Positions 6,544 to 56,919 of a stretch of DNA of 64,000 nucleotides are shown here, one piece after another; position 1 is the stretch's first letter; every line of letters begins with the position of its first letter. Origin of the DNA: Candidatus Margulisiibacteriota bacterium. GTDB lineage: Bacteria > Margulisbacteria > WOR-1 > JAHJIW01. The position numbers and the translations under genes were made by a program. The stretch is taken from positions 67,562 to 131,561 of the forward strand of contig JAHJIW010000005.1 in the NCBI GenBank assembly GCA_018823125.1, read 5' to 3'. The notes under the pieces were generated by a model that was given only the letters and a program-made list of their open reading frames with translations, was not told the origin of the DNA and did not search any database.

Positions 6544-7206
6544 CTATAGATTAGTACTAAACTTATAACCTTTTTCTTTAATCAGTTTTATTATTTCAGG
6601 TAGTGCAATAATCAATTCTTCTCTTTTGGGACCGCCGTCGTGCATGAGGATGATCGCACCGTCCGCTAGATTATTATTCACCGTTTTAACATATTCTTTG
6701 GCGGCATGAACATTCCAGTCGCTGATATCAAAGGTCCAAAATGCAATTTTGTAACCCTTTTCTTTGGCTAGTTTAAAAGCGCGCCAGTTAAAAAAGCCGT
6801 AAGGGGGACGAAATAATTTTACATTTACGCCGCTGGCGTCGAAAATTGTTTGATGCGTATTGTCTAACTCCTTTTTGATGACCGCTCGATCAATAACATA
6901 ACCATCGATGTGTGTATAAGTATGGTTTGCCAGGGTATGTCCCTCAATATTGATTCTTTCAATGATTTGAGGATTAGCCTTAGCTTTATAACCAATAACA
7001 AAAAAAGTGGCTTTGACCCCATTATCCCTGAGGATGTCCAGTATTTTAGGGGTATTAACCGGGTCGGGACCATCGTCAAAGGTTAGATATACGGTTTGCG
7101 GAGTATTTTTTTGCCAAATAATTTCACCGGCCTGCGGTACACAGGAAGTAAGTAAAAACGACAAAAAAACTAATATAATTAAGCCGGGGATCAATGTTTT
7201 TTTCAT
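6544..7206 (-). CDS. Polysaccharide deacetylase (NodB-homology) lipoprotein
   Basis: Signal peptide ending LLTSC (lipobox-like); TFDDGPDP motif and downstream His residues typical of CE4 deacetylases. Confidence 0.85.
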   Translation of the reverse strand: MKKTLIPGLIILVFLSFLLTSCVPQAGEIIWQKNTPQTVYLTFDDGPDPVNTPKILDILRDNGVKATFFVIGYKAKANPQIIERINIEGHTLANHTYTHIDGYVIDRAVIKKELDNTHQTIFDASGVNVKLFRPPYGFFNWRAFKLAKEKGYKIAFWTFDISDWNVHAAKEYVKTVNNNLADGAIILMHDGGPKREELIIALPEIIKLIKEKGYKFSTNL

Positions 7207-7305
7207 GATGAATCATTTTAGCATATTATTATCAATAATGTCTTTGCACTAATAACAGGCCCACTGCTATAATTGATTTAAGTTTACAAATTATTGGAGA
7301 ATAAA

Positions 7306-8574
7306 ATGGTTTTATTTAGTGAAATGTATGCTTCAAAATTAAAAAGAGTTGCCGTAGTTGACCGCATCCAGGAGCCGGTAGGCAAAGTTAAGGATTTAGT
7401 CATTACAATTACCGAACCGTATCCCGTCGTTTCGGGTCTCTTAATTACTACTAACGCAGGTAAAGAATATATTATTTTAATGGCTGAGATCGACATGATT
7501 GGCCAGCAATTTGTTGCTACCCGCACCACCAAGGACCGCATCCCCTTTACTAACCACCGCAATCATGAACTCTATGCTTTTAGAGATATATTTGATAAAC
7601 AGATTGTAGATATTAACGGGGCGCGGGTAATTCGGGTCAACGATTTAAAGTTGGCTAAGGTTGAGCAAAGTGTAAATTTAATTGCAGTCGATGTAGGGGC
7701 GAGGGGACTACTAAGAAGAATTGGCATTGAAGGTTTGGTTGATTGGTTGCTGGGATTGTTTAAAATTACAATTCCGGAACGTTTAATTGGTTGGGACCAC
7801 GTCGAACAATTCCAAACTGGGTCGCATCTTGGCCCAATTACCATTCCGCATAATCGGATCACTGAACTGCATCCGGCGGACGTTGCCAATATTATTAGTC
7901 AGGTGCACTCCGAAGAAAAAACCGCCATCTTTAAATCTTTAAGTGATAAGACCGCCGCTGAAGCGCTGCACGAATTAGAACCTAAAATTCAGGCCATGTT
8001 GCTTTTAACCATTGATACTAAAAAAGCCCTGCGGATTATCGAAAAAATGCCGGTAGACGAAATTGCAGACGTATTAGGCGATCTTCCGCAGGAGAAAGCC
8101 AATGAATTGTTAAGGTTGCTGGGTCCGCGTAAGATGCAAAAAGTAAAAGAATTATTAAGTCACCCCGAAGAAACCGCGGGCGGTTTGATGACCACCGAAT
8201 TTATTAGTGTACCTTTGCATTTTTCGGTTGAAGATACCATTTTAAAACTCAGAGAGGTGGCTCCGGACGCCGAAACTATTTATTACGTTTACGTTTTAGA
8301 TAATGATGAAAAATTGATCGGGGTCTTTTCCCTCCGTGAATTAATTATTGCTCAGCCGCAGGTAAAAATCAGCCAAATTATGACTACCAATTTAAAAACG
8401 GTGGATTCGGATGATAATCAAAAAGAAGTGGCGGATATCATATCAAAATATAATTTGTTTTCAGTGCCGGTAGTTGATAAAAATAATAAAATGTTAGGCA
8501 TTGTTACAGTAGATGACGTCGTAGACTTTATTTTACCTCCCATATCTCGCAGAAAGAGGCATATTTTAGGATGA
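7306..8574 (+). CDS. Soluble PRC-barrel / MgtE N-terminal domain / CBS-pair protein (no transmembrane domain)
   Basis: MgtE_N-like helical segment followed by two CBS-like segments; no hydrophobic C-terminal region. Start set to ATG at 7306 with GGAG six nt upstream (track start is an in-frame TTG at 7294). Stop overlaps the next gene's start (ATGA). Confidence 0.75.
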   Translation: MVLFSEMYASKLKRVAVVDRIQEPVGKVKDLVITITEPYPVVSGLLITTNAGKEYIILMAEIDMIGQQFVATRTTKDRIPFTNHRNHELYAFRDIFDKQIVDINGARVIRVNDLKLAKVEQSVNLIAVDVGARGLLRRIGIEGLVDWLLGLFKITIPERLIGWDHVEQFQTGSHLGPITIPHNRITELHPADVANIISQVHSEEKTAIFKSLSDKTAAEALHELEPKIQAMLLLTIDTKKALRIIEKMPVDEIADVLGDLPQEKANELLRLLGPRKMQKVKELLSHPEETAGGLMTTEFISVPLHFSVEDTILKLREVAPDAETIYYVYVLDNDEKLIGVFSLRELIIAQPQVKISQIMTTNLKTVDSDDNQKEVADIISKYNLFSVPVVDKNNKMLGIVTVDDVVDFILPPISRRKRHILG

Positions 8575-9815
8575 AAGCTCCCCGCGCACCTTTTTACAAA
8601 AGAATGTGGTTTTTCCTTTTAATCCTGGGACCAGGGATGGTTTCGGCTATGGCAGGCAACGATGCGGGAGGTACGGCAACTTATTCGGTGATCGGGGCCA
8701 ATTATGGTTTTAAAATGCTCTGGCTTTTGGTAATTGTTGGAATTGGACTAGCTACCATTCAAGAGATGTGTGCTCGGATGGGCGTGGTTACGGGGAAAGG
8801 CTTGTCAGACTTAATTAGAGAAGAGTTTGGGGTACGCTGGACGCTTTTTGCGATGATTATCCTTTTAGTAGCCAATATTGCCGTAACTATTGCCGAATTT
8901 GCCGGAATTGCCGCCTCCCTGGAAATTTTTGGAATCACTCGATATTTAACCATTCCGATTACGGCCGTGTTTATCTGGTGGTTAATTACCAAAGGAACCT
9001 ATCGGTTTGTAGAACGGTTTTTTATTGCGGTATGCTTTATTTATTTTTCTTATATTATTTCAGGTTTAATGGCCAAGCCGGATTGGGCTTTGGTTTTGCA
9101 AAATACGGTGGTTCCTCATTTTGAGTTTAAAGCAAATTTTATTATGATTGCGATTGCCATGATTGGTACTACCATTACTCCCTGGATGCAGTTTTATCTG
9201 CAGTCATCGATTGTGGAAAGAGGGTATAAAACCAGACAATACGGCATGGAGCGCTGGGACGTAATTTTAGGAGCGGTGGTTGCGGTGGTGATTGCCTATT
9301 TTATTATTGTTGCCTGTGGAGCAACGCTGCATACGGCCGGGATACAAGTTCACAGTGCTAAGGATGCGGCCTTAGCGCTTTCGCCGTTGGTGGGTAGTAG
9401 TGCGGCAATGCTATTTGCGCTGGGTCTTTTTGGCTCATCATTTTTAGGCGCCACTATTTTACCGCTTTCTTCCGCTTACGCCATTTGTGAGGCTTTTGGT
9501 CTGGAAAACGGCATTAGTAAAAAATTATCTGAGGCTCCGGTTTTTTTCTTTTTATTTACCGCTTTAATTCTGATTGGAGCCGGGGTAGTTTTAATTCCCA
9601 GTGTTTCACTGATTAATGTAATGGTTATTTCCCAAACTGCCAACGGAATTCTTTTGCCGTTTATCTTGATTTTTATGCTGCTTTTGGGGAATAACAAAAA
9701 ACTGATGGGGGAGCACAAGAATTCTGCTTTTTATAATATTGTTATCTGGGGAATTGCGCTATTCTTAATTCTGCTTACTATAATCCTGTTATTTTCTTCT
9801 TTGGTTCATTTCTGA
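8571..9815 (+). CDS. NRAMP (SLC11) family divalent cation transporter, NRMT-like
   Basis: 414 aa polytopic membrane protein. The TM1 region LGPGMVSAMAGNDAGG resembles the NRAMP GPGFL...DPGN signature but with DAGG. TM6 region reads GTTITPW where canonical NRAMP has A..MPH. Confidence 0.75.
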   Translation: MKAPRAPFYKRMWFFLLILGPGMVSAMAGNDAGGTATYSVIGANYGFKMLWLLVIVGIGLATIQEMCARMGVVTGKGLSDLIREEFGVRWTLFAMIILLVANIAVTIAEFAGIAASLEIFGITRYLTIPITAVFIWWLITKGTYRFVERFFIAVCFIYFSYIISGLMAKPDWALVLQNTVVPHFEFKANFIMIAIAMIGTTITPWMQFYLQSSIVERGYKTRQYGMERWDVILGAVVAVVIAYFIIVACGATLHTAGIQVHSAKDAALALSPLVGSSAAMLFALGLFGSSFLGATILPLSSAYAICEAFGLENGISKKLSEAPVFFFLFTALILIGAGVVLIPSVSLINVMVISQTANGILLPFILIFMLLLGNNKKLMGEHKNSAFYNIVIWGIALFLILLTIILLFSSLVHF

Positions 9816-9820
9816 TGCCA

Positions 9821-9853
9821 TAAAAAAACTAGGATGTTTAATAATAAACATCC
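9821..9853 (-). terminator. Rho-independent terminator (reads on minus strand; possibly bidirectional)
   Basis: Perfect 9-bp stem GGATGTTTA/TAAACATCC with a 4-nt loop, followed on the minus strand by a run of 7 T; lies just downstream of the small minus-strand ORF. Confidence 0.5.
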
Positions 9854-9879
9854 CAGTTTGATAAAGGTAACCCTAAAAA

Positions 9880-10038
9880 CTATTTATTCTTTTTTAGAAG
9901 TTTATGTTTCTTAATAACACCCCAGATTACTTGGGTCATTTTAGTAACAGGTATTGGCTTCGCTCCAAATACTTTTTCTAGAGTTTCGCCTCTTCCTTTA
10001 AAATTAACGGTCATTTTCTTTAATCCACCTCTTGCCAT
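9880..10038 (-). CDS. Small ORF (52 aa), resembles the N-terminal half of a SWIB/MDM2-type domain
   Basis: Not in the ORF track (under 60 aa). ATG preceded by AAAGGAGGTGA; followed by a terminator hairpin. Translation MARGGLKKMTVNFKGRGETLEKVFGAKPIPVTKMTQVIWGVIKKHKLLKKNK. Confidence 0.35.
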   Translation of the reverse strand: MARGGLKKMTVNFKGRGETLEKVFGAKPIPVTKMTQVIWGVIKKHKLLKKNK

Positions 10039-10294
10039 TTAAACTCACCTCCTTTATGTTGAGAGTTCTAGTCATGAAATTAAGCTCGATTATGCTAAAA
10101 CTCATGAATTAGGAGTATTATAAACATATTTATGAGTAAAAATCTACAATTATTTTAATTTTTTTCTCTGAAAAACCATTTTTTATCTCTAAGAAGTTTG
10201 CGGTATTTTGTTGATCGGCACGCTATTTATGGGTTTACGAACCAAAATGAATAGCTTACAATATTTACAGCTTATAAAACTGGAGATGATTGAT

Positions 10295-10684
10295 ATGCGA
10301 AAAATATTTTTATTAACTGGTTTGCTGGTTTTCACTTTGCTGATGGTTAGTTGTGTAGTATCGAAGACCCAATTATTTAATCAGGATGATAACGGCGGAG
10401 GGTTTACAGTTGAAGTAAATAAGGTTTTTAAAGTAACGCTGCCGGCTAACCCAACAACCGGTTACGGCTGGTATTTCAATAAGCTGGATACGGAAGCGTT
10501 TAAGGTGGTTGAGAGTGGTTATAATTCTGAATCGGATAGTCGGGTGGGGGCGGGTGGAAACAGCTGGTGGAAGATCAAAACGCTGGCTAAGGGCGAAAAA
10601 ACCTTAAGTTTATTATATTATCGATCGTGGGAGGGACCCCAAAAAGCGGTAAACCAATATGAAATTACATTAATTATAAAGTAA
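10295..10684 (+). CDS. Chagasin-family (I42) peptidase inhibitor lipoprotein
   Basis: NPTTGYGW motif characteristic of chagasin/I42. Start set to ATG at 10295 (MRKIFLL, RBS GGAG upstream), giving a signal peptide ending LLMVSC. Confidence 0.8.
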
Positions 10685-10733
10685 TTCAGTATCTAATTGC
10701 ATTTCCTCCCATATTTCCCTATAATGTATCGCC

Positions 10734-12098
10734 ATGTTCAAAAAAATCCTGATTGCTAACCGCGGCGAGATCGCCGTACGCATCATCCGGGCCTGTAATG
10801 AGTTAGGCATTAAAACCGTTGCCGTGTACTCAGCCCCCGACAAAGACTCACTTCACGTTAAACTGGCGGACGAAGCCTTTTGTATCGGTCCCGCATCCCC
10901 GGCCGAATCTTATCTGAACGTTCCCAATCTGATTAGTGTCGCCGAAGTTTCCGGTGCCGAAGCGGTTCATCCGGGATACGGCTTTTTGGCCGAAAACGCT
11001 AAGTTTGTGGAAATTTGTGAATCCCATAATATTGTATTTATTGGTCCCCCGATTTCGGCGATGGAAAAAATGGGGGATAAAGCGACGGCTCGCAAAACCG
11101 TGCAAAAAGCCGGAGTTCCGGTTGTTCCTGGATCGGATGGAACCATTTCCGATGAGGATGAGTTAAGGCAAGTAGTAGCTAAAATTGGTTACCCGGTAAT
11201 CATGAAAGCAACTGCGGGTGGTGGAGGAAAAGGGATGCGCGTTGCCAGAAACGATGATGAGCTGATCCGCTTCTTTAAAACTGCCCGGGTTGAAGCCGAA
11301 GCGGCGTTTGGCAACCCTGAAATGTATGTCGAAAAATTTATCGAAGAACCCCGCCACATCGAAGTTCAAATTTTAGCCGATAAACACGGCAATGTTATTC
11401 ATCTGGGTGAGAGGGATTGTTCGATTCAACGCCGCCACCAAAAATTAATCGAAGAAGCGCCTTCTCCAATTATTAATGAAAAACTGCGTAATAAAATAGG
11501 GGAGGCAGCGGTTAAAACGGCGAAAGCGGTTAAATATTATAGTGCCGGCACCATTGAGTTTTTATTTGATAACGGCAAATTTTATTTCATGGAAATGAAT
11601 ACCCGGATTCAGGTAGAACACCCGGTTACCGAAATGATCACTAATATTGATATTATTAAAGAACAAATTGCCATCGCGGCGGGCGAAAAGCTGCGTTTTA
11701 AACAAAAGGACGTTAAGTTTAGCGGGCATGCCATTGAGTGCCGTATCAATGCCGAAAACCCGGCAAAAAACTTTATGCCTTCACCGGGGGATATTCCGGT
11801 TTATCTGCCGCCGGGAGGTCCGGGGGTCAGGGTAGACAGCCATGCTTATCAGGGCTATACAATCCTTCCTTACTATGATTCTTTAGTTTCAAAGCTGATT
11901 GTCTGGGGAAATGACCGCACCGAGTGCATTCAGCGTATGCTGCGCGCATTAGATGAATATGTAATTGATGGAATCCATACTACGATTCCTTTCCACCAAA
12001 AAGTGTTAGAGCATGAAGCCTTTATTTCCGGAGATTTTAATACTAAGTTCATAGAAAAATACTTCAGTAATAATAAGGAAGCAGTTAAGCATGGGTAA
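10734..12098 (+). CDS. accC: Biotin carboxylase subunit of acetyl-CoA carboxylase
   Basis: 454 aa; [22 protein letters not shown]-terminus and ATP-grasp motifs. No accB seen adjacent. Confidence 0.9.
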
Positions 12099-12571: not shown

Positions 12572-13690
12572 ATGAAAATGCCGGGAAGAAGTGCAGTAAT
12601 TTATAAACGTTCTCAAGCCCCCCGAATAGATAGTCAGCAATTTTTGGCTAAAAGTCGAGCGATTCGTACAACCGAAAATAGGGGGGTATTGGCCACAAAG
12701 ATGGATACCGATAGTGTTGATCAACCATCCCCGATAATTGGACTAACCGCACCTGATGCCAGAACTTTCAGATCAGTTTTATTCAATTTACTTAGCAATC
12801 CTGCCATTCAAGTTAATCCTAAAGCACTTAGGTTAACTGCATTCGAAGGGAAGTTTGGCCCACAACTGGATGCGATCGCCGCCCATCAACCCAAAGATGC
12901 TACAGACATATTAGATTTAACACAAGTCGAGGGTTGGAGCGAAGCCCACAACTTATCTGGCGATAAAATCGGTTTTCATTTGGTAAGCGGCGGACTAATT
13001 CCGCAATCTCCGATAGATCTTAGCTTTGCCCGGGCCTGGGCCATGTTTAATTTTACCCAATCGATTACCTCTGCTCAAGCAAGAATTGAAGAAAGTGATA
13101 AATTTTTTGCGCAAATTGTTCGTGAAATTGATGCTTTTGATAAATTAAACGAAAACCCTCTCTTGGACGAGAGCGGTCTTCCGCGGTGCGCTGATTCTGA
13201 ACTTTTGAGAAGAGAAGATTTTCATTTAAGATGTTTTCATAATGCAGGGATTGTTACCATCAAGGTGTCACGGGGAGACTTGACCGACCCGTATTTTGCG
13301 GTTGCTGCCCGGGATACGTATACTTTTTATAAACTGTTATCCAGGGGCCTGGTAAATTCGTATTATGATGGTGAAATAGGAAGGTTTAACGGGGCTTTTG
13401 CACGTTTCTTTGATGGGATTGCCGCACAAGAACACGATCCTAACTTTTCTTTAGCCAGTATTCCTGATTTTCAATGTAGCGTGCCTTTGGGCAGCAACGG
13501 AATTGATGTTGGGATCAGGACCCTCCCTTTAGGTTTAGGAAGGTACCAAGATGAAATTTCGTTTGCAAAAGTTTGGTTTACTTTTGAAACCGGAGGAAGA
13601 AATACTTCGGGACGTCAATTAGCTCAATCAGTGGTTGACGACATCTCAATCCAGATGCATATCCATGCCTCGCAGCTGGATAGAGGATAA
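12572..13690 (+). CDS. Hypothetical protein (372 aa), no family recognised
   Basis: Long open frame with A/T-rich third positions like neighbouring genes; no deaminase (HAE/PCxxC) or other known motif found. Weak RBS, so the true start is uncertain. Confidence 0.5.
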   Translation: MKMPGRSAVIYKRSQAPRIDSQQFLAKSRAIRTTENRGVLATKMDTDSVDQPSPIIGLTAPDARTFRSVLFNLLSNPAIQVNPKALRLTAFEGKFGPQLDAIAAHQPKDATDILDLTQVEGWSEAHNLSGDKIGFHLVSGGLIPQSPIDLSFARAWAMFNFTQSITSAQARIEESDKFFAQIVREIDAFDKLNENPLLDESGLPRCADSELLRREDFHLRCFHNAGIVTIKVSRGDLTDPYFAVAARDTYTFYKLLSRGLVNSYYDGEIGRFNGAFARFFDGIAAQEHDPNFSLASIPDFQCSVPLGSNGIDVGIRTLPLGLGRYQDEISFAKVWFTFETGGRNTSGRQLAQSVVDDISIQMHIHASQLDRG

Positions 13691-45712: not shown

Positions 45713-45785
45713 GCCCCCGTAGCTCAGTGGATAGAGCAGCGGTTTCCTAAACCGTTGGTCGGAGGTTCAACTCCTCTCGGGGGTA
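45713..45785 (+). tRNA. tRNA-Arg (anticodon CCU)
   Basis: 73-nt cloverleaf folded by hand: 7-bp acceptor stem, D-stem GCTC/GAGC, anticodon stem GCGGT/ACCGT with loop TTCCTAA (U33, anticodon CCT, A37), T-loop TTCAACT. CCA not encoded; followed by a T-run. Confidence 0.85.
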
Positions 45786-47662: not shown

Positions 47663-49312
47663 ATGAATCTAAAAAAAATAATCCTGTTAGCCGTGATTGT
47701 GATCCTGGTCGTAGTCCTGTCTATTCCTTTAGCCCGCAACCTCATCCGCTCTTTTTACACTTATGACATTTTAATTAAAGGCGGCACGGTCTATGATGGA
47801 AGCAAAGAAAAACCTAAAGTTGAAGATATCGGGATCAAGGGTGACAAAATCACCGCGGTAGGAAAAGATCTTTCCGGATCGGCCATGAAAACGATCAATG
47901 CCGAAGGTTTGATCGTCACGCCCGGTTTCATCGATTGCCATAACCATACCGACCTAAATATTTTAATGGCCCTCCTCATGTCCGGTAAAACGGATGATTT
48001 TTCCATGATCACTCCGGCCTGGAGAAATAATCATAATTATATAACTCAGGGGGTTACAACTATAGTTACCGGGTTATGCGGCGGAGGGCTGCCAGACACA
48101 AACATGTGGCTGGGCCTGATTGATTCTCAGAAATTTGCAAGCAATGTTTATCACCTGATACCTTACGGCATATTAAGACAGCAGCTTTTCGGGGACAACC
48201 AGCCAACAACCCTAACTGCGGAGCAGCTTGATACTCTTAAAAAGATGGTGGAGAAAGAAATGCAGAACGGCGCCATCGGCGTTACCGTGGGTTTGGAATA
48301 CGCACCCACTTGTTTCACAACTACCGATGAGCTGGTTGAGATCGCCAAAGTGGTCAATAAATACGGCGGACTCTACGATGCTCATATCCGGGACCAGACC
48401 GGCACCATGCATGATAACGGCCAGCCAGGGGTGCTGAATTCGATTAAAGAAACCATCGAGATCGGCAAACGCGCCAATATCCCTGTCCACATCTCGCATA
48501 TTCAGCTCAACCTTCCCTGGAATAATGTCCAGGCAAAACAAATGTACGGCTTAATTGAGCAGGCCCGTGCTGAAGGTGTAGATATTACTGCTGACCAGCA
48601 TCCCTACGATGCCGGTTATGCGGTGCTTTCCTACCGCCTGCCGGATAAGTTCAAGACCGGCCTCGGCGTCAATGCAAAATATAAGAATCCCGAAGGCAAA
48701 GCGGAGATGATAGCAGCTACCAAAAAGATATTTACTTTCCTTGGTCCGGATAAGATCATGCTTACTTCAGGGCCTGAAAAATACATCAACAAGACCATCC
48801 AGGAGATCGCAAAAATGGAAGGAAAGGATCCGGCTGAAGTTTATGTCGACCTTTCCTGCCTGGATCCGGCGCCCTTTGCGCTCTTCCAGGAAATCAGCGA
48901 TAAAGTTAATCGGGAAAACATGCAGCACGATTACGTTTTCACCGCTTCCGATGGTTTTACGGTTTTTGAATCTGCGGATTCACCGCATCCCAGATTTTTT
49001 GGCTGTTTCCCGCGCAAAATTAAAAAATATGCGGTGGAGGAAAAATTGCTGAGCTTAAATGACGCGATCCGTTCGATGACTTCGCTGCCGGCGGCCAAGT
49101 TTAAGCTTAAAGACCGGGGCGTGATCGCCGTGGGAAAATACGCGGATATTGCGGTCATCGATCTAAAAAATCTTAAAGAAAATGCTACTTACGCTGAACG
49201 CGGGCTTTATTCCGAAGGCATTGAATATTTATTGGTCAACGGTAAACTGGCAATCGATAACGGTAAGATAACCGGCAAAAAAGCCGGGCGCGCATTGAGG
49301 CTTGGACAATAA
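47663..49312 (+). CDS. Amidohydrolase-family D-aminoacylase (N-acyl-D-amino-acid deacylase-like)
   Basis: Signal/anchor segment; metal-binding GFIDCHNH motif and overall D-aminoacylase-like layout. Confidence 0.8.
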   Translation: MNLKKIILLAVIVILVVVLSIPLARNLIRSFYTYDILIKGGTVYDGSKEKPKVEDIGIKGDKITAVGKDLSGSAMKTINAEGLIVTPGFIDCHNHTDLNILMALLMSGKTDDFSMITPAWRNNHNYITQGVTTIVTGLCGGGLPDTNMWLGLIDSQKFASNVYHLIPYGILRQQLFGDNQPTTLTAEQLDTLKKMVEKEMQNGAIGVTVGLEYAPTCFTTTDELVEIAKVVNKYGGLYDAHIRDQTGTMHDNGQPGVLNSIKETIEIGKRANIPVHISHIQLNLPWNNVQAKQMYGLIEQARAEGVDITADQHPYDAGYAVLSYRLPDKFKTGLGVNAKYKNPEGKAEMIAATKKIFTFLGPDKIMLTSGPEKYINKTIQEIAKMEGKDPAEVYVDLSCLDPAPFALFQEISDKVNRENMQHDYVFTASDGFTVFESADSPHPRFFGCFPRKIKKYAVEEKLLSLNDAIRSMTSLPAAKFKLKDRGVIAVGKYADIAVIDLKNLKENATYAERGLYSEGIEYLLVNGKLAIDNGKITGKKAGRALRLGQ

Positions 49313-49947
49313 TGTTTTTTTTGAAACGATTTTTACTGATAATTGTTTTACTTATCAGCTTAGCCTCTTTTGCCCGGGCTGAAGTATTGAGCAGTGCGAT
49401 CCCGGTCAGTTTAGGACAGTGGGTCCTTGCTCCGTTTATCGGGCAGCAAACCAATGTTAATAATAATTCTGCGCTTTCCCAGACGCTCTATGGATTTTCG
49501 GCTGGCTACGGGTTATGCGACCGTACGGAGCTGGATCTGATCTATGAGTATGGCACCTTCAGCGGGGTTCCCGGCATGGAAATGTTGTTGCAGAGCTACA
49601 GTTGCTCATTGAAATATAATCTTTTGCTGGAGGCGCCGGTTTCGCTGTCGGTGGGGGCCAATTATTCTTTAATATCACAACGCGATAATTTTGCCGGATC
49701 GCCCAGCGGCAGTAACTATGGCTTTAAGGTATTGATCAGTAAAGTATTTTCTTCTTTGCATGCTTACGTCTGCTTAAACCGTTCCATCACTTCACTGGCC
49801 GGAGAAAGCAGTGCCACCGAGGCCACGCTGGGCGGCATGTGGGTGATAACGAACCAAATTGTTTTGATAACCGAAAATACCTGGCAGCTGCAATCGGCCG
49901 GTTACACCAGTAATCAATTATGCTTCAGCGCTGCTTATGTTTTGTGA
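49312..49947 (+). CDS. Hypothetical secreted protein, possible small outer-membrane beta-barrel
   Basis: Start overlaps the upstream stop (TAATG). Signal peptide ending FARA, alternating beta-like pattern, aromatic-rich C-terminus. Confidence 0.45.
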   Translation: MFFLKRFLLIIVLLISLASFARAEVLSSAIPVSLGQWVLAPFIGQQTNVNNNSALSQTLYGFSAGYGLCDRTELDLIYEYGTFSGVPGMEMLLQSYSCSLKYNLLLEAPVSLSVGANYSLISQRDNFAGSPSGSNYGFKVLISKVFSSLHAYVCLNRSITSLAGESSATEATLGGMWVITNQIVLITENTWQLQSAGYTSNQLCFSAAYVL

Positions 49948-49968
49948 TAAAGATTTGAGTCAGATATA

Positions 49969-51273
49969 TTAACTGCCTGCTTTTTTCAGCTTGAACTTGA
50001 AGGGCTCGGTAAATACCAGCGAGGGATCGCCGGTTGCCGGATCGATCGGCCCATCCTTAAGATAAAATTTTATTTCAATGCTGCGCTCGTTGATATCGTA
50101 GAGCATGGTCCAGAGCGTCCGGTGAGGCAAAGGACCGACTGACTGTTCAGCTATGTCAGTGGTATGGGCATAGACCAGGCTCATCGCCTCCTGGACATCA
50201 TCCGGTGAAAATTTCCCCTGATGGGCCTTGACATAATCAGTAAGCTTGGCGTAGCGGTAAAAAGTATTGTAAGTGCCTTTGGTTGTATAGGTCGGGAACT
50301 TGCTGGCGTCGGGATAGAGGTAAACCGCGTGATTGGTTATGACCTGCGGCCGGTCATTGTTATCGATGAAGTGATAACTGAAATCCTTGGGTGAAATATC
50401 GAAAATGAAAGACTTGCCGGAGCGGTCACAGATCAGAAGATGTCCGGGCATGAATCCCGCGACCAGCTTGTTATTGAGGATTGCCATTTTGGCCTCGTCC
50501 ACCGTCGCGCAGGTATCCAGGATCAATCTGTCCAGCTGCAGCATGTTCAGGCCGCCAACATCATCGCCCAGCGGATTGCTATCGGTACTGGGCGTGCCAA
50601 GATCATCTTCCAGCAGGGCCACGATCAGACCTTCGGAGTTCATCCCCCCCTGGAAGCCGTTTAATAAGTCCAGAGCGCCCACGACGATAGAGGAATACCC
50701 TTTATCCGGGTAGAGTTCTATGACAAAATCCCTGGAATAAAGATTATGCTCGCCCTCGACCCGCTTCATCCCCATCATCTCCCGCATGGTCGCGGTGTGA
50801 AAATCTATATTGTGGCCAACCAGATCGTGGCCATTGGCCGTGGAATCGGCCGGGAAAAATACCGCCGAGCAGCCGGGAGGAGTGATAAAGATATCGTAAT
50901 AAAGGCCGCTGGTGACATAAGTGTTATCTGTGGGAGACAGGCCGTATGATTTGGCCACGCCTTTCATCCGTTCAAGCAGGATCGGGTAGTTCTTTTCCAT
51001 GTACTGGCGGCGAGCCTCGGCGTAAAGCGGTCCGGCATAAGGGAGAAGCTTTTTGATGCCGAGCCACTCCTGGGCGATATCGCCCAAGGCTTTGCCGATC
51101 TCCTCATTGGTCCCGCGCAAAACGATGTGCCGGATCTCCAGATAAGTATCCGGCTCCTTTGCCAATATCACTTCATTGGTGACTATAACCGGGTTGGAGT
51201 TTTTGGCTAAGACGCCGGTCCCGAATCCGGCGATGAAACAAGAAACAAGTAAAAGACTAAGCAATTTTTTCAT
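49969..51273 (-). CDS. Peptidase C45-type Ntn-hydrolase (acyl-CoA:6-APA acyltransferase-like), secreted
   Basis: Signal peptide; putative autoprocessing site PPGCSAVFF. Start set to the internal ATG (MKKLLSL) preceded by AGAGGGGGAG. Confidence 0.7.
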   Translation of the reverse strand: MKKLLSLLLVSCFIAGFGTGVLAKNSNPVIVTNEVILAKEPDTYLEIRHIVLRGTNEEIGKALGDIAQEWLGIKKLLPYAGPLYAEARRQYMEKNYPILLERMKGVAKSYGLSPTDNTYVTSGLYYDIFITPPGCSAVFFPADSTANGHDLVGHNIDFHTATMREMMGMKRVEGEHNLYSRDFVIELYPDKGYSSIVVGALDLLNGFQGGMNSEGLIVALLEDDLGTPSTDSNPLGDDVGGLNMLQLDRLILDTCATVDEAKMAILNNKLVAGFMPGHLLICDRSGKSFIFDISPKDFSYHFIDNNDRPQVITNHAVYLYPDASKFPTYTTKGTYNTFYRYAKLTDYVKAHQGKFSPDDVQEAMSLVYAHTTDIAEQSVGPLPHRTLWTMLYDINERSIEIKFYLKDGPIDPATGDPSLVFTEPFKFKLKKAGS

Positions 51274-51310
51274 AATTTCTCCCCCTCTAAAAATATTATA
51301 TCCCTGCAGA

Positions 51311-52498
51311 TCATTTATTTTCAAATAACGGTTTTAGATCAAGCTCCGTCCATCCTGGATTGCCAAGCGCTTTGATCCACATCTTGAGCTCTGCCGGTAC
51401 AACCACTAACTGCTGAATTGCCAGGTTAGGCCGGGTGGCGCCACCCAGAGTGATCGGAGTATCGAGTACTTGCCTCATCACTTGCGCATTGAATTTGCCC
51501 TTATATTTTTCCCCCAGGGCTATCAAATTCTTATAGCGGGTGTAAGAGCGCGTTTCGCCGCCTTCGGTCGGCTCCATATTCCAGGCCGGATTCACAAAAT
51601 GATTGGTCTCGACCAGTAAGCCATCTTTGTCCGGCATTCTTTTCTTGGTATCATCAATCGAACATTCATAGGCGAAGGCGGTATTTTTATCTGCAACGGT
51701 AAAGATCTCAGCCAAACCGAGGCGGATCGAGTTGAGCGCCGCGTCCAGCTGCGTTATGTTCGAAGAATCAAATAAAAAGCTGGTGATGTAAAGTAGCGTC
51801 ATTTGCCGGTTGTCTACCGACGCGGTCCCGCACGATGCGGCCCCGTCGTTAAGCTCCATGAATAATCCATCTTTATTTAATCCGTGCATGGCTGTCACGC
51901 CGCCGGGATAGCCCACGACCGCGGTCGGCACTGCGTCTTCCGGCTGGTAAACGATCACGCTGAGATAGGGGTTAAATTTTTCATAGTATTCCGGATAATC
52001 AAAATTCCGGCCGAAAACCAGCGGCCCGCCGCCGGTATATTCTCCCCAGGCAACGATGGCTGAACAATGGACTGCAGTCTCGGAAATGATGGGCAGGACA
52101 TTGATCTGGTCGAGCGCCAATAATTTATCAAGCTCCAGGCCGGAAGTCTCGGCCATGCCGTAAATAATGTCCTGAAAACGTTTGGGATATACGGCAAAGA
52201 TCCCTCTGGTGGTATCATTAATATCTTCAAGCTTCAATCCTACTTCTTTGACGTAAGTTTCTTCAATTGCAACTTTATACATCTGTGCTAACTGTTCCTT
52301 AAGCAATTTTCCTTCCTGCCGTCCCATCTCCCGGTAAGTGCCGCGCAGCACGACCACGTTGAGATTGCCCGCTTTATATAATTTGCCGCCCTCGTACTCT
52401 GAAACCAATTTTAGCTCGACCGCCAAAGCCGGCAGTGAAATGGAAAACGAAAAGAAAAGGATCAAGATGAACAAAAGGGTAGCTTTTTTTAATAACAT
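51311..52498 (-). CDS. Peptidase C45-type Ntn-hydrolase paralog, secreted
   Basis: Signal peptide; HCSAIVAWGEY...GRNFDY motif aligning with the other two paralogs. Confidence 0.7.
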   Translation of the reverse strand: MLLKKATLLFILILFFSFSISLPALAVELKLVSEYEGGKLYKAGNLNVVVLRGTYREMGRQEGKLLKEQLAQMYKVAIEETYVKEVGLKLEDINDTTRGIFAVYPKRFQDIIYGMAETSGLELDKLLALDQINVLPIISETAVHCSAIVAWGEYTGGGPLVFGRNFDYPEYYEKFNPYLSVIVYQPEDAVPTAVVGYPGGVTAMHGLNKDGLFMELNDGAASCGTASVDNRQMTLLYITSFLFDSSNITQLDAALNSIRLGLAEIFTVADKNTAFAYECSIDDTKKRMPDKDGLLVETNHFVNPAWNMEPTEGGETRSYTRYKNLIALGEKYKGKFNAQVMRQVLDTPITLGGATRPNLAIQQLVVVPAELKMWIKALGNPGWTELDLKPLFENK

Positions 52499-52532
52499 TT
52501 GAAGTCTCCTTTTGGTGAATTATAACACTTTT

Positions 52533-53723
52533 TTATTCAAATAGCGGCTTCAGATCGATTTCGGTCCAGCCCTGATAATTGGTCAGATTTATCCACCACT
52601 TCAGTTCCGCGGGAACGGCTATCACCTGGTATAAGGTCTCTTCATCAGCGCTTATAGGCCGTGTCGCGCCGCCCTTGTCAATGGGCGTCTTCAACAGCTC
52701 TTTCATAGTATCGACATTAAGCCGGCCTTTGTACTTTTCTCCGAGGGCGTAGAGGTTTTCACGCCTCTGTGCGCTCTCTGCTAATGGACACGGCCATCGG
52801 CCCCAGGCCGGATCAACAAAATCGTTTGATGCCGCCAGCAGCCCGTCCGCTCGGCCGGCTACCCGCTGTAATCCGTAGGTGGCCCATTCATATGAATAAG
52901 CCGCATTCTTATCAGCTACCTGGATGATACAGGCGAAATCCGGCAGCGTGGTATTGAATCCGGTGTTGATGCCGTCCATGGTGGAGTTGTCAAGCAGGAA
53001 GAACAATAAATTGGCCATGTTCGGGACCCGGTCGTGCCGGGTGATGATCGCGGTCGTAATATCATCATCGAGTTCGAGGAATATCCCGCTTTTGTTCATG
53101 GCGTTCTGGGTGTAGGCTGCGCCCAGAAACGCAAAACTGGCAGTCGGGATTCCGCCGTCATCCGGATTATAAACAACGCATTCCATAAAAGGCAGGAACT
53201 CCTCAAAATAAGACATATAATCATAATTGCGGCCTACGACCAGCGGACGGCCGCCTGTATATTCGCCCCAGGCCGCGATCGCGGAACAACCCTGAGTATT
53301 CGTCGCTAACATACCGTACACGCCCCAGATCTCGGCGCAGGCATCAAGCGTGTTTAGCAGGATATGTTTTTCCAGAGAGATGCCGGACGTTTCCGCCATC
53401 CCGTATATCAGGTCCTGCGATCTCTTCGGCAGTCTCCTGAAATAGTCGCTGGCGATCTTATCAAGCGTTTCATAAGTCATGCCGTTCTTGCCGATGAAGC
53501 GTTCTTCAAAAGCTTTCTTATAGCACGGTTCCCAATCGTTTTTGAGAAGAGCGCCGTACTGCCGGCCCATCTGGCGGTAGCTCCCGTGAAGCTTAAGGAC
53601 GTTTATCTTCCCGGCCTTATACAGCTTTCCCCCTTCAAATTCAGAAACATATTTCAGCTCCTGAGCGTGAACCATCGAAACCAAAAAACACAAAGCCAGT
53701 ACGATTCCAAATAACTTTTTCAT
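52533..53723 (-). CDS. Peptidase C45-type Ntn-hydrolase paralog, secreted
   Basis: Signal peptide; GCSAIAAWGEY...GRNYDY motif; shares the SEFEGGKLYKAG N-terminal block with the 51311..52498 paralog. Confidence 0.7.
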   Translation of the reverse strand: MKKLFGIVLALCFLVSMVHAQELKYVSEFEGGKLYKAGKINVLKLHGSYRQMGRQYGALLKNDWEPCYKKAFEERFIGKNGMTYETLDKIASDYFRRLPKRSQDLIYGMAETSGISLEKHILLNTLDACAEIWGVYGMLATNTQGCSAIAAWGEYTGGRPLVVGRNYDYMSYFEEFLPFMECVVYNPDDGGIPTASFAFLGAAYTQNAMNKSGIFLELDDDITTAIITRHDRVPNMANLLFFLLDNSTMDGINTGFNTTLPDFACIIQVADKNAAYSYEWATYGLQRVAGRADGLLAASNDFVDPAWGRWPCPLAESAQRRENLYALGEKYKGRLNVDTMKELLKTPIDKGGATRPISADEETLYQVIAVPAELKWWINLTNYQGWTEIDLKPLFE

Positions 53724-53979
53724 TGTACCTTTTTACCTCGCCGTATATTTTATCGCACCTGGCGGCTGAAGTAAATGCTGCTGCATTGACACAAAAACCA
53801 TCCCGCGCTGCAAAACCAACCGGATTTGGGGGCAGGATTGCGGCTCGAATTATGAGCATAGCCCATAGTCCCATATACAAGAGCGTGGCGGCCGCACTAA
53901 AGCTTCAACCCGAAGATGATTTTCTTGAAAAGTGAAATTTATCCTTGCTTTTCTCGATAAAAAACCAAAGGACCCTTAA

Positions 53980-54657
53980 ATGGCAGTAAAACCAATAACC
54001 AGAAAACTATCGCAGGCGATACCTAAGGCACGTCCAATTTTAAAAAAATTGGGAAGAGCCAGTTTAAGTTCACTCCCTATACTTGGAACCTTTGCTACAG
54101 GAATTGCGGCCTATCATATTCACCCCGTATTTCAAGCCGAAGTTGATCGTGGCCGTGAATTTCTTTTAGCGCACAATCCGCATACCATCGAAGTGTTAGC
54201 TTCTGCAACTTTACTGGCAACTTCTGACATCATTGCCCAACGCTACGAAGGAAATAGTTTTAGTTATTCGAGGCTAGGGCGCATGTTTGTTTTTGGAGGG
54301 TTATCTGGTTTTTTTGCGCGACAGTTTTATGATTTACTTGATCAAATGTATCCTCCGGAGAATGGCCGACAAATTGTTAAAAGAGTGCTAATTGATCAAG
54401 GTAATTATGCTCCGCTTTTTTTGGCATCCTTTCATACCTTTAATCATGTCTTACAAGGAAAACCAATCACCGAATTAGCCGGCAGCATAAGAAAATTTGT
54501 TTTTAAATTTATACCTTTAAGCTGGAGCTTTTGGACCCCCGGTGCAACCTTAATTTATTGCTTGCCTGATGATTTGAAAGTATATACTTCAGCCATCCTT
54601 GGTTTAGTGTGGGGAATAGTATTATCCAGAATCGGGCATGACCTGCCGCGGGAATAA
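53980..54657 (+). CDS. Membrane protein resembling the Mpv17/PMP22 family
   Basis: 225 aa; segments TSDIIAQ, LIDQGNYAPLF and a C-terminal W-rich helix resemble Mpv17/PMP22 signatures (by recollection). Confidence 0.45.
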   Translation: MAVKPITRKLSQAIPKARPILKKLGRASLSSLPILGTFATGIAAYHIHPVFQAEVDRGREFLLAHNPHTIEVLASATLLATSDIIAQRYEGNSFSYSRLGRMFVFGGLSGFFARQFYDLLDQMYPPENGRQIVKRVLIDQGNYAPLFLASFHTFNHVLQGKPITELAGSIRKFVFKFIPLSWSFWTPGATLIYCLPDDLKVYTSAILGLVWGIVLSRIGHDLPRE

Positions 54658-54678
54658 CCGTATGCTATAATTCTCTCT

Positions 54679-55731
54679 GTGAAAAAGTTAATCGTACTGG
54701 CTCTCTGTTTAGTTTATCTTGCCCCAATTGCTCAAGCCGGCTCGATTGGCGGGATGCCTTACGTTATATACAACTCAACCTACGGTGCAGAATACGGCCT
54801 GATTGGCCGGCTGAGAAATTACCTGGGATATCACGAATCGCTGACCCTGTCGGCTACCTTGATTGAGAACGGAGGCAACATCAATAATTTTGTGCTTTCT
54901 TTTCCGGATCAGGATTACCGGCACGGTCAAGTTTTTGACCTGGCGGTTGACGTTGAAGGGGCCGTCGGCACCTACATTAACGAAAGATATTACGGATTGG
55001 GAAGCAATACTCCGGGAACCAATTACACGACCTTTAACAATGGGCACAGCCGCGTCAATATTATCCTGACGCGCGCCTACCAAAGCAATTTTTCTCTGGC
55101 GGTCGGTCTGCTGCTGGCGGGTAATTCCTTTTCCAATATTACGCAAGGGGTTAATCCCTTGACGCAAAATGCCCAGGACATCTGCTCAAAATATTACGCG
55201 GGAAGCTTGGGGCTAACCCTGGATAATCGGGATAACAGCATGGATCCGCACGGCGGCAATTATATTTTAACTGATTTTGATTACGGGATTACGGCCGCCG
55301 GGAGTCCGGTGAAATATGCAAAGCTGACGACCGATTTGCGGCGTTACGACACGCCGTTCCAAAAAGACCAGGTCCTGGCCAGCCGGGTGATGCTGGCCAC
55401 GATGACGGGAGATGTCATTCCGATATACGAATATGCTTCGCTAGGCGGGCGTGATACTTTACGGGGCTACGCCATGGACCGCTTCCGCGATAAAAGCGCC
55501 GCCCTGATCAATCTCGAATACCGTTTTCCGATTATCTGGGTTTTTAGCGCTGCGGTTTTTTACGAAGCCGGAAAAGTTGCTCCGCTGCTGACGGATATTG
55601 GATTTAATGATTGGGCCTCTGACTACGGGGCCGGACTGCGCATCAATTTTGGCAATGTAATCGTGCGTGGAGACTTTGGTCGCAGCAGTGAAGGAACCAA
55701 CGCCTACTTTTTCTACAATCAGGCGTTTTGA
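54679..55731 (+). CDS. Omp85 (BamA/TamA) family outer-membrane beta-barrel protein, barrel only
   Basis: Signal peptide ending IAQA; C-terminal barrel pattern with LGGRDTLRGY and terminal residues ...NQAF. GTG start. Confidence 0.6.
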   Translation: MKKLIVLALCLVYLAPIAQAGSIGGMPYVIYNSTYGAEYGLIGRLRNYLGYHESLTLSATLIENGGNINNFVLSFPDQDYRHGQVFDLAVDVEGAVGTYINERYYGLGSNTPGTNYTTFNNGHSRVNIILTRAYQSNFSLAVGLLLAGNSFSNITQGVNPLTQNAQDICSKYYAGSLGLTLDNRDNSMDPHGGNYILTDFDYGITAAGSPVKYAKLTTDLRRYDTPFQKDQVLASRVMLATMTGDVIPIYEYASLGGRDTLRGYAMDRFRDKSAALINLEYRFPIIWVFSAAVFYEAGKVAPLLTDIGFNDWASDYGAGLRINFGNVIVRGDFGRSSEGTNAYFFYNQAF

Positions 55732-56918
55732 TCGTCCCGCCGGATAACTAACGGCCCTTTGGTTGCTTTCATGATGTGGGACACCGGCAGATTATTTTGC
55801 CACAACTGAACCATGCCCCGCATGTATTTATTGATGTGACTGAAATATTTTTTATAGCCGGCGCAGAGGTAATTTAATCCCGGCTCATCCGATGGAGTTT
55901 TTAGGAAGCGCCGTTTGGGACATTCTCCGCGGCAGGCAAAAAGGTAAGTGCATTTTTTACAGTACTGCGGTAATTTGTCCGCTTTAGCCGCGCCAAAGTT
56001 TTTCTGTTTTGGCAGTTCAACCAGATCCTTAAGCTGATCTTTTAGGACATTGCCCAGCAGATATTCCGGATAAACAAAGTGGTCGCAGGAATAAACATCG
56101 CCGTTATGTTCGATCACCAGCGACCGGCCGCACTCAGGCGCAAAGAGGCAAAGCGGGGCAGGGTTGCCGGCCCAGTTATTTAAAGCCCATTCAAAGTTCA
56201 TGACGAAAATTTTGCCGACGTCGTGTCTGACCCATTGATCAAAGATTGCAATCAGGAAATCACCATATTTCTCCGGTTCAACTGACCAGGGTGTAATCAT
56301 GCCGTTTGGATCGCGCTCAACCACGGCGGTAAATTGAACAAACTCAACCCCTTCGCTTTTCAAGAACGCATAGACTTCCAAAGGTTTGTAAGCGGTTTCT
56401 TTGGCAACGCAGGCCAGCACGTTAAATTCGACACCGTGTTTTTTAAGCAGGCGCAATCCTTTGATAACTGCATCAAAGGTTCCGCGGCCCGAGCGATCTT
56501 TGCGGTAAATATCATGAATCTCTTTGGTCCCGTCCAGACTGATGCCGACAAAAAAATTATTCTTGCTTAGAAATTCTGCCCATGCATCATTGAGCAGTAC
56601 GCCGTTGGTTTGCAGTGAGTTTTTGATCTTGTTGCCTTGCTGGTATTTCTTTTGCAGTTTAAGGACCTGGCGGTAAAAAGCCAGGTCCGCAAGCAGGGGT
56701 TCTCCGCCGTGCCAGACAAATTCTACTTCTGCCTGCGGCTGGGATTCGAGGTACTGGCGGATAAAAGCTTCCAGCACCTCGCCGGTCATGCGGAAATTTT
56801 TGCCACTGGGGAAAAGTTTTTCTTTTTCCAGGTAAAAGCAGTAATCGCAGTTTAAATTGCAGGCCGGACCAACCGGCTTTGTAATCACATGAAAACTGGC
56901 AGGTAACTGATTAGCCAT
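55719..56918 (-). CDS. Anaerobic sulfatase-maturating enzyme (radical SAM/SPASM)
   Basis: CNLNCDYC radical SAM motif near the N-terminus and C-terminal Cys clusters (CKKCTYLFACRGECP). Confidence 0.85.
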   Translation of the reverse strand: MANQLPASFHVITKPVGPACNLNCDYCFYLEKEKLFPSGKNFRMTGEVLEAFIRQYLESQPQAEVEFVWHGGEPLLADLAFYRQVLKLQKKYQQGNKIKNSLQTNGVLLNDAWAEFLSKNNFFVGISLDGTKEIHDIYRKDRSGRGTFDAVIKGLRLLKKHGVEFNVLACVAKETAYKPLEVYAFLKSEGVEFVQFTAVVERDPNGMITPWSVEPEKYGDFLIAIFDQWVRHDVGKIFVMNFEWALNNWAGNPAPLCLFAPECGRSLVIEHNGDVYSCDHFVYPEYLLGNVLKDQLKDLVELPKQKNFGAAKADKLPQYCKKCTYLFACRGECPKRRFLKTPSDEPGLNYLCAGYKKYFSHINKYMRGMVQLWQNNLPVSHIMKATKGPLVIRRDDQNA

Positions 56919-56919
56919 T

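Follow-up and report, generated by a model that had tools for sequence, protein, structure and literature searches.

Why would a gene for the cytoplasmic part of an MgtE-type protein, lacking the membrane part, overlap the gene for a transporter of an unrelated family? The question is raised by two genes, here called gene A and gene B, in a 64,000-nucleotide (nt) stretch of a Candidatus Margulisiibacteriota contig (the window, in whose positions all coordinates are given). Gene B encodes a predicted NRAMP-related Mg2+ transporter (NRMT) of the SLC11 family; among bacterial Mg2+ importers, NRMTs form the fourth class. Our answer, held with moderate confidence, is that the pair is an SLC11-family Mg2+ importer, co-transcribed and translationally coupled with an MgtE-derived accessory protein that acts in trans as a Mg2+ sensor and mediates feedback inhibition. 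The arrangement of an NRMT with an MgtE-like partner is itself already known, and the window locus is a typical riboswitch-less member with a soluble partner. The view of a preliminary description of this DNA, that such an arrangement had not been described, is therefore refuted by the 'mgtE-nramp operons' of Shin et al. 2014 (PLoS Genet 10:e1004429, PMC4072509). The two genes are:

7306-8574, + strand: gene A, 422 amino acids (aa), a soluble protein of PRC-PRC-MgtE_N-CBS-CBS composition that accompanies the NRMT as its 'MgtE-like fragment'
8571-9815, + strand: gene B, 414 aa, an NRMT of the SLC11 family

The stop codon of gene A shares bases with the ATG of gene B in an ATGA at 8571-8574 (+). 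This 4-nt overlap, pointed out in the preliminary description, can be read directly from the sequence and is repeated by independent gene calls: the public record GCA_018814585.1/JAHIZP010000005.1, a Candidatus Margulisbacteria metagenome-assembled genome (MAG), holds identical 422-aa and 414-aa products with the same overlap. A GAGG lies 11 nt 5′ of the gene B ATG. The ATG of gene A at 7306 is preceded, six bases upstream, by the ribosome-binding site GGAG (7296-7299), and the open frame starts at a TTG at 7294.

The identity of the transporter is clear at the level of sequence. Gene B matches Pfam Nramp at 1e-98. Among all solved structures the top match is EleNRMT of Eggerthella lenta (PDB 7qia; E=7e-117, 46% identity over 405 ungapped residues), whereas canonical NRAMP/MntH chains match at 1e-29 or weaker, DraNramp with 27% identity. 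With the NCBIfam MntH model (NF001923), B reaches a score of 165.7, where the cutoff is 430. Neither of the canonical motifs, DPGN in transmembrane segment 1 (TM1) and A-x-x-M-P-H in TM6, is present in B, where DAGG and T-x-x-T-P-W stand instead. The two site motifs, and the EleNRMT residues with their counterparts in B (roles from PMC8806188), are as follows.

8655-8672 (residues 29-34), + strand: TM1 site motif G-N-D-A-G-G of B; D31 corresponds to EleNRMT D55 and G34 to G58
9165-9188 (residues 199-206), + strand: TM6 site motif G-T-T-I-T-P-W-M of B; T200 corresponds to EleNRMT T224, and W205 replaces His
EleNRMT Asp55, metal ligand: D31 in B
EleNRMT Gly58, in the Asn position of DPGN: G34 in B
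EleNRMT Thr224, required for Mg2+: T200 in B
EleNRMT Gln379, strongly impaired transport on mutation: Q355 in B
EleNRMT Glu133, acidic and near the metal site: E109 in B
EleNRMT Trp229, at the first TM6 His position: W205 in B

Mutations of D55, T224 and Q379 affect transport by EleNRMT, which carries Mn2+ besides Mg2+ (Ramanadane et al. 2022, PMC8806188). The residues D55, A56 (A32 in B), G57, G58, T224, P228, W229 and Q379 of EleNRMT (PDB 7QIA/7QIC/7QJI/7QJJ; eLife 11:e74589) are all identical in B and, like EleNRMT, B has non-proton-accepting residues in place of the histidines of the proton pathway. It differs from EleNRMT in having Thr203 for Ala227 and a leucine at the counterpart of N234. 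With the canonical Mn2+/Fe2+ transporters (DraNramp, ScaDMT, EcoDMT) B has in common the LeuT-type SLC11 fold family, the TM1 Asp and the TM10 Gln, but DAGG replaces DPGN and T..TPW replaces A..MPH. All of the sequence criteria place B in the NRMT clade. The assignment to this clade rather than to the Mn2+/Fe2+ NRAMPs, proposed in the preliminary description, is thus upheld by the EleNRMT match, by DAGG and T-P-W, and by the tested site residues common to both proteins. By comparison with EleNRMT, B most likely imports Mg2+ (and Mn2+) without proton coupling.

For a wider comparison, a GTDB-based collection with one genome per species was scanned with the two NRMT site motifs. The motifs were present in 349 genomes, from which 80 loci were taken. 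The positions of D31, A32, G34, T200, W205 and Q355 are conserved in 78-80 of these 80 loci; within the DAGG motif, the D, the A and the final G are found in all 80 and the middle G in 78. At position 203 of B, which is Met in canonical NRAMPs, Ala occurs in 66 loci and Thr in 14. Thr203 of B is therefore a normal variant of the NRMT clade.

The product of gene A has been annotated merely as a 'CBS domain-containing protein' in the Ca. Margulisbacteria MAG, whose copy is 100% identical. The preliminary description had seen in it the cytoplasmic parts of MgtE, an N domain and a CBS pair, behind a PRC-barrel N-terminus and with no membrane domain. This composition is borne out by Pfam, TIGR00400 and hydropathy, and the three families that it named for the pair were all matched by hidden Markov models (MgtE_N at 4e-24, CBS at 5e-21 and Nramp at 1e-98). 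The parts of the protein are:

7321-7524 (residues 6-73), + strand: first PRC barrel, Pfam PF05239, 3e-7, 30.7 bits (cutoff 21.2); the model has beta strands at 6-72
7576-7809 (residues ~91-168), + strand: second PRC-like barrel, predicted by the fold model and undetected by Pfam
7867-8172 (residues 188-289), + strand: MgtE N domain, Pfam MgtE_N 4e-24 and alignment to 2yvy/2yvx
8191-8532 (residues ~296-409), + strand: CBS pair, two Pfam CBS matches, 5e-21
8533-8571, + strand: basic C-terminal tail, LPPISRRKRHILG, in place of the plug helix and membrane domain of MgtE

Of the solved structures, A is closest to that of the Thermus thermophilus MgtE (TtMgtE) cytoplasmic domain (E=1.5e-44). An AlphaFold2 model (mean pLDDT, the predicted local distance difference test, of 83.5) has beta-barrels at residues 6-72 and ~99-168, a helical domain at 190-284 and the CBS pair at 301-409. 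A sequence repeat between the two N-terminal barrels was sought with BLASTP, which gave nothing significant, and the second barrel is a feature of the fold model only. TIGR00400 (mgtE) matches A over profile positions 25-251 of 450 with 199.7 bits, below its cutoff of 232.75; A therefore has the cytoplasmic half of MgtE without the membrane half. No match to the MgtE membrane domain (PF01769) was found in A by Pfam. Hydropathy gives A no hydrophobic segment either: over 19 residues, its Kyte-Doolittle mean peaks at 1.42 (B has many such segments). For these three reasons A is not an MgtE transporter. Compared to the TtMgtE cytoplasmic domain (PDB 2YVX/2YVY), with which it has the N domain and the CBS pair in common, A is without plug helix and pore domain, carries ~185 extra N-terminal residues that form the two predicted PRC barrels, and is encoded separately from the transporter that it accompanies.

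A protein of this kind might be a remnant of a longer one. Among the matches listed, however, 120 homologues of A (58-79% identity) have equal length and the same conserved C-terminal tail, so that the possibility left by the preliminary description, that A is a fragment of a full-length MgtE, is not borne out. Within the tail LPPISRRKRHILG, P411, R415 and G422 are invariant in 60 close homologues and L410, P412, R416 and R418 almost so; the soluble partners of other phyla end in analogous basic tails. A truncated pseudogene was rejected on the strength of these same-length homologues with their conserved tail and of the recurrence of soluble forms in several phyla.

Is the Mg2+-sensing apparatus of MgtE retained? 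Within MgtE, the cytoplasmic domain acts as a gating sensor, and six Mg2+-ligand residues of TtMgtE were tested by Maruyama et al. (PMC5882242). Five of these six are kept in A according to the alignment, E59 as E219, D91 as D251, D95 as D255, D247 as D404 and D250 as D407. The retention extends across the 76 full-length partners of the 80 loci: the positions of D91 and D247 are Asp in all 76, and that of D95 is Asp or Glu in all 76.

The pairing of the two genes was followed by searching the 80 NRMT loci with gene A (tblastn). A partner homologue adjoins the NRMT gene on the same strand in 77 of them, which answers in the affirmative the question of conservation that the preliminary description had posed. 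All three loci without a partner sit at contig ends: L034 and L051 have 632 and 302 bases upstream, and L021 has 3 kb upstream and 0.4 kb downstream. By their labels, the loci come from no fewer than nine phyla or candidate phyla of bacteria and from one archaeon, among them Margulisbacteria/Saganbacteria/WOR-1, Nitrospirae, Bacillota/Clostridia, Actinomycetota (many Eggerthellaceae), Synergistia, Vulcanimicrobiota, a Cyanobacteria-labelled MAG, Magasanikbacteria and a Woesearchaeota archaeon. The distance from the partner to the NRMT start was grouped by partner type:

soluble partners: gap of -4 to +45 nt
one-membrane-helix partners: median gap of 89 nt
multi-helix partners: median gap of 23 nt

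The ATGA overlap recurs in a Nitrospirae pair (L009). In Eggerthella sinensis (L065), the NRMT is 96% identical to EleNRMT and the partner lies 43 nt upstream with one C-terminal membrane helix, in contrast to the soluble, overlapping partner in the window. A natural fusion of A and B would have been evidence of interaction; the sole candidate, L018, comes from a high-GC MAG, looks frameshifted and was discarded.

We also noted loci in which the gene order is inverted. The NRMT gene precedes the partner in L005-L008 (MAGs of Synergistia and Vulcanimicrobiota; locus coordinates ~7260-10950). Two paralogous genes for soluble partners stand behind it in L005-L007, one of ~415 aa (ending KPKRRRG/KPKKRRG) and one of ~417 aa (ending TSWKKRLPRMYQ), so that the partner may be heteromeric; the L008 contig ends after a single visible copy.

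The partners differ most at their C-termini. All 76 full-length partners have an N-terminal extension of ~180-190 residues before MgtE_N, and a Pfam PRC barrel was found in all four other-phyla partners that were scanned; PRC-PRC-MgtE_N-CBS-CBS therefore appears to be the architecture of the family. Beyond CBS2, 16 of the 76 (A included) are soluble and end shortly afterwards in a short, mostly basic tail. A single hydrophobic helix is present in 49 (Eggerthellaceae and other Coriobacteriia), and one partner has two predicted helices. The remaining 10 are long, at ~600 aa with at least three helices (L012, L014-L017, L019, L043, L050, L055, L072). A profile of their C-terminal region matches the plug helix and membrane domain of TtMgtE (2yvx, E=8e-9) as well as isolated MgtE membrane-domain structures (E ~2e-5), and by this match the long partners are complete PRC-fused MgtE-like proteins. 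In these proteins the pore residue Asp432 aligns to Met or Val and the Gly/Asn-rich motif of TM2 is not kept. These losses suggest that the degenerate membrane domain is an anchor rather than a working pore. Since many partners carry either one helix or a degenerate MgtE membrane domain, the partner family is located at the membrane. In most of the loci L020-L080 (Eggerthellaceae/Coriobacteriia), the partner of the EleNRMT-type transporter (e.g. positions 4587-5939 of L065) has an acidic plug-like segment and one C-terminal membrane helix.

The three forms could be stages of one history. The partners would then record a stepwise dismantling of MgtE, from a full-length protein whose pore domain lacks its signature residues, through one with a single anchor helix, to a soluble protein with a basic tail, with the sensor half kept throughout as a trans Mg2+ gate for an unrelated SLC11 transporter. 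We offer this scenario tentatively and regard it as rather doubtful.

Control of the operons by Mg2+ at the RNA level was considered through the M-box riboswitch and the leader of gene A:

7207-7305, + strand: divergent intergenic region 5′ of gene A, 99 nt, with TATAAT at 7268-7273 and GGAG at 7296-7299

The TATAAT at 7268-7273 is a candidate promoter by consensus match, and the neighbouring gene at 6544-7206 lies on the minus strand, divergent from gene A. An Rfam scan of the whole window at gathering thresholds gave just one transfer RNA, at 45713, and no M-box (RF00380). RNA-level Mg2+ control by such a riboswitch was therefore rejected for the window locus, both because the scan gave no match and because the 99-nt leader is too short. 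The nearest relatives, L002 and L004, likewise have no M-box. Elsewhere, an M-box stands 5′ of the partner gene in three of 22 other loci tested (L012, L016 and L019). Grouped by partner type, these are three of the four long-type loci tested, and none of the 18 loci tested with soluble or single-helix partners.

These data bear on which ion is handled. If the pair served Mn2+, or both ions, and not mainly Mg2+, B would be a proton-independent Mn2+ importer and its partner would be Mn2+-responsive. Within the MgtE-associated branch, the A. capsulatum transporter relieved a Mn2+ transport defect but a Mg2+ defect only poorly (PMC4072509), and EleNRMT transports Mn2+ as well (PMC8806188); the lack of an M-box in the window, L002 and L004, and the Thr at position 203 of B where EleNRMT has Ala, would also suit a Mn2+ system. 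Against these stand the presence in B of all the EleNRMT residues shown to be important for Mg2+, T224 above all, the retention of the MgtE Mg2+-ligand acids in the partner, and the M-box control of related operons, which links the family to Mg2+. A principal role in Mn2+ handling thus seems unlikely to us, and Mg2+ is the probable physiological substrate.

How might the partner act on the transporter? In the feedback reading favoured here, A would be the sensor half of an MgtE-type protein working in trans on the SLC11 transporter B. At high cytoplasmic Mg2+ concentrations, Mg2+ would bridge acidic residues of A from its N domain to its CBS pair. In the resulting compact form A, tethered through its PRC barrels and basic tail (through a membrane helix in other lineages) either to the membrane or to the transporter, would then restrain transport by B and so produce feedback inhibition. 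Four observations count towards a functional link between A and B: the adjacency in 77 of 80 loci, the ATGA overlap, the M-box in three of 22 loci and the membrane-anchored partners. In GlnK-AmtB and KtrA-KtrB, a membrane transporter is gated in trans by a soluble sensor encoded in the same operon. If the hypothesis is true, A would likewise be an operon-encoded cytoplasmic sensor of a small ligand that docks on a transporter to throttle uptake, although the protein families are unrelated to those of GlnK-AmtB and KtrA-KtrB and the docking of the partner on an NRMT is hypothetical.

The same synteny and anchoring can be set against the idea that the partner acts on some other target and is merely co-expressed with the transporter, for example as a Mg2+-responsive factor whose PRC barrels and CBS pair bind ribosomes or the division machinery. 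RimM is one protein known to have such a barrel. The best fold match of the PRC part of A is the archaeal division protein pair CdpB1/CdpB2, and CBS proteins bound to archaeal ribosomes are among the weaker sequence and fold matches. Yet a partner adjoins the NRMT almost universally (77/80), start and stop codons frequently overlap, most partners are anchored in the membrane, and Pfam detects no nucleic-acid-binding domain in A. An action on another target is, in our judgement, highly improbable.

The literature on the partner begins with Shin et al. 2014, who discovered NrmT and reported that the genes of most members of the group adjoin a homologue of the MgtE cytoplasmic domain; their Fig. 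S5 draws the operons, with the partner gene split in two in C. acetobutylicum. The roles proposed there for the MgtE-like fragment were 'cytoplasmic feedback regulation of transport' or 'metal chaperone activity' (PMC4072509). A regulatory role of the partner is therefore a hypothesis published in 2014 and not a new idea. The operons described (C. acetobutylicum Ca_c0685; A. capsulatum Acp2976/Acp2977) resemble the window locus in having the partner upstream, on the same strand and with the same two families, and the conservation is alike, with 77 of 80 loci here and 'most group members' there. The window differs in being without an M-box, which is frequent but not universal in the family, and, compared to C. 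acetobutylicum, in having the partner as one unsplit gene. Tandem PRC barrels and the membrane-anchored and full-length partner variants are not mentioned in the available part of that paper. Literature searches found no later work on the partner (subscription-only papers were outside their scope).

Several observations weigh against feedback inhibition by a Mg2+-sensing partner. When the A. capsulatum pair was co-expressed in Mg2+-transport-deficient B. subtilis, the partner did not improve Mg2+ rescue, and the transporter itself mainly relieved the Mn2+ defect (PMC4072509). The C. acetobutylicum NrmT complemented a Mg2+ transport defect without its partner (PMC4072509), and the activity of EleNRMT was described without mention of any partner (PMC8806188); the partner is thus dispensable for NRMT activity. 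Within A, the sixth tested ligand of TtMgtE, D226, is replaced by N383, so that a Mg5-type site may be weakened; N383 is invariant in close homologues of A, and the column is Asn in 20 of the 76 partners. The ATP site of MgtE, where Phe227 stacks on the adenine (Tomita et al. 2017, PMC5529423), is not kept either: F227 corresponds to L384 in A and is Leu, Ile or Met across the partner family, never Phe. Asn203 of that site is not kept in A and is variable in the family. ATP or energy sensing by the CBS pair, as in MgtE, was therefore judged unlikely. In B, the Thr203 in place of Ala means that selectivity could differ in detail from that of EleNRMT.

The chaperone role named in 2014 has to be considered in the same light. 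Here Mg2+ (or Mn2+) leaving the transporter on its cytoplasmic side would be received by the partner and either passed on or locally buffered, with no change in the transport rate. The conserved acidic ligand residues of the partners would serve such a function, and synteny and coupling would also fit synthesis of the two proteins in matched amounts. Free cellular Mg2+ is, however, millimolar (Shin et al. 2014, PMC4072509), and the parent domain in MgtE is a gating sensor (PMC5882242). The membrane anchoring and the degenerate pore domain of many partners also indicate that these proteins began as the regulatory half of a channel. We know of no dedicated Mg2+ chaperone. We regard a chaperone or buffer as distinctly improbable, and feedback inhibition by A remains the reading that we prefer.

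The roles put forward in 2014 for the near-obligatory, MgtE-derived partner are putative. To our knowledge no regulatory subunit of any SLC11/NRAMP transporter is known, and literature searches found none either; if the feedback reading is true, A would be the first. The present comparison adds two PRC barrels in the partner, the retention of the Mg2+ ligands but not of the ATP site, and the existence of soluble, single-helix and degenerate-channel forms. The window adds no new kind of system; its soluble, tightly coupled pair is a convenient case for tests of complex formation and of Mg2+ gating.

Around the pair lie genes with housekeeping functions: dxs, formate-tetrahydrofolate ligase, folE, dprA, a divergent polysaccharide deacetylase, accC, nusB and ribE. 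No sign of a mobile element was seen among them. Between nusB and the riboflavin synthase gene, a 372-aa open reading frame (12572-13690, +) has no Pfam match even at E=1. Further along the window, at ~48000-58000, the GC skew flattens and the G+C content, 0.40-0.44 over the greater part of the window, rises to 0.47-0.51; no ribosomal RNA or other Rfam family was found in this stretch.

Directly 3′ of the pair, one feature may bear on the end of its transcript:

9826-9859, no strand assigned: hairpin of 15 bp, 11 nt past the gene B stop, with a T-run on the minus-strand side

Because the T-run sits on the minus-strand side, the hairpin is the terminator of a convergent 52-aa gene; it may end the A-B transcript too. 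This gene (9880-10038, −), which converges on gene B, has a strong AGGAGG site and is present in the public record with no family assigned. Its similarity to one half of a SWIB/MDM2 domain is weak and lies below the threshold (E=0.006; 16.8 bits, where the cutoff is 25). The gene at 10295-10684 (+), just 3′ of the pair, encodes a chagasin-family inhibitor of cysteine peptidases (Inhibitor_I42, 9e-23) whose N-terminus resembles that of a lipoprotein.

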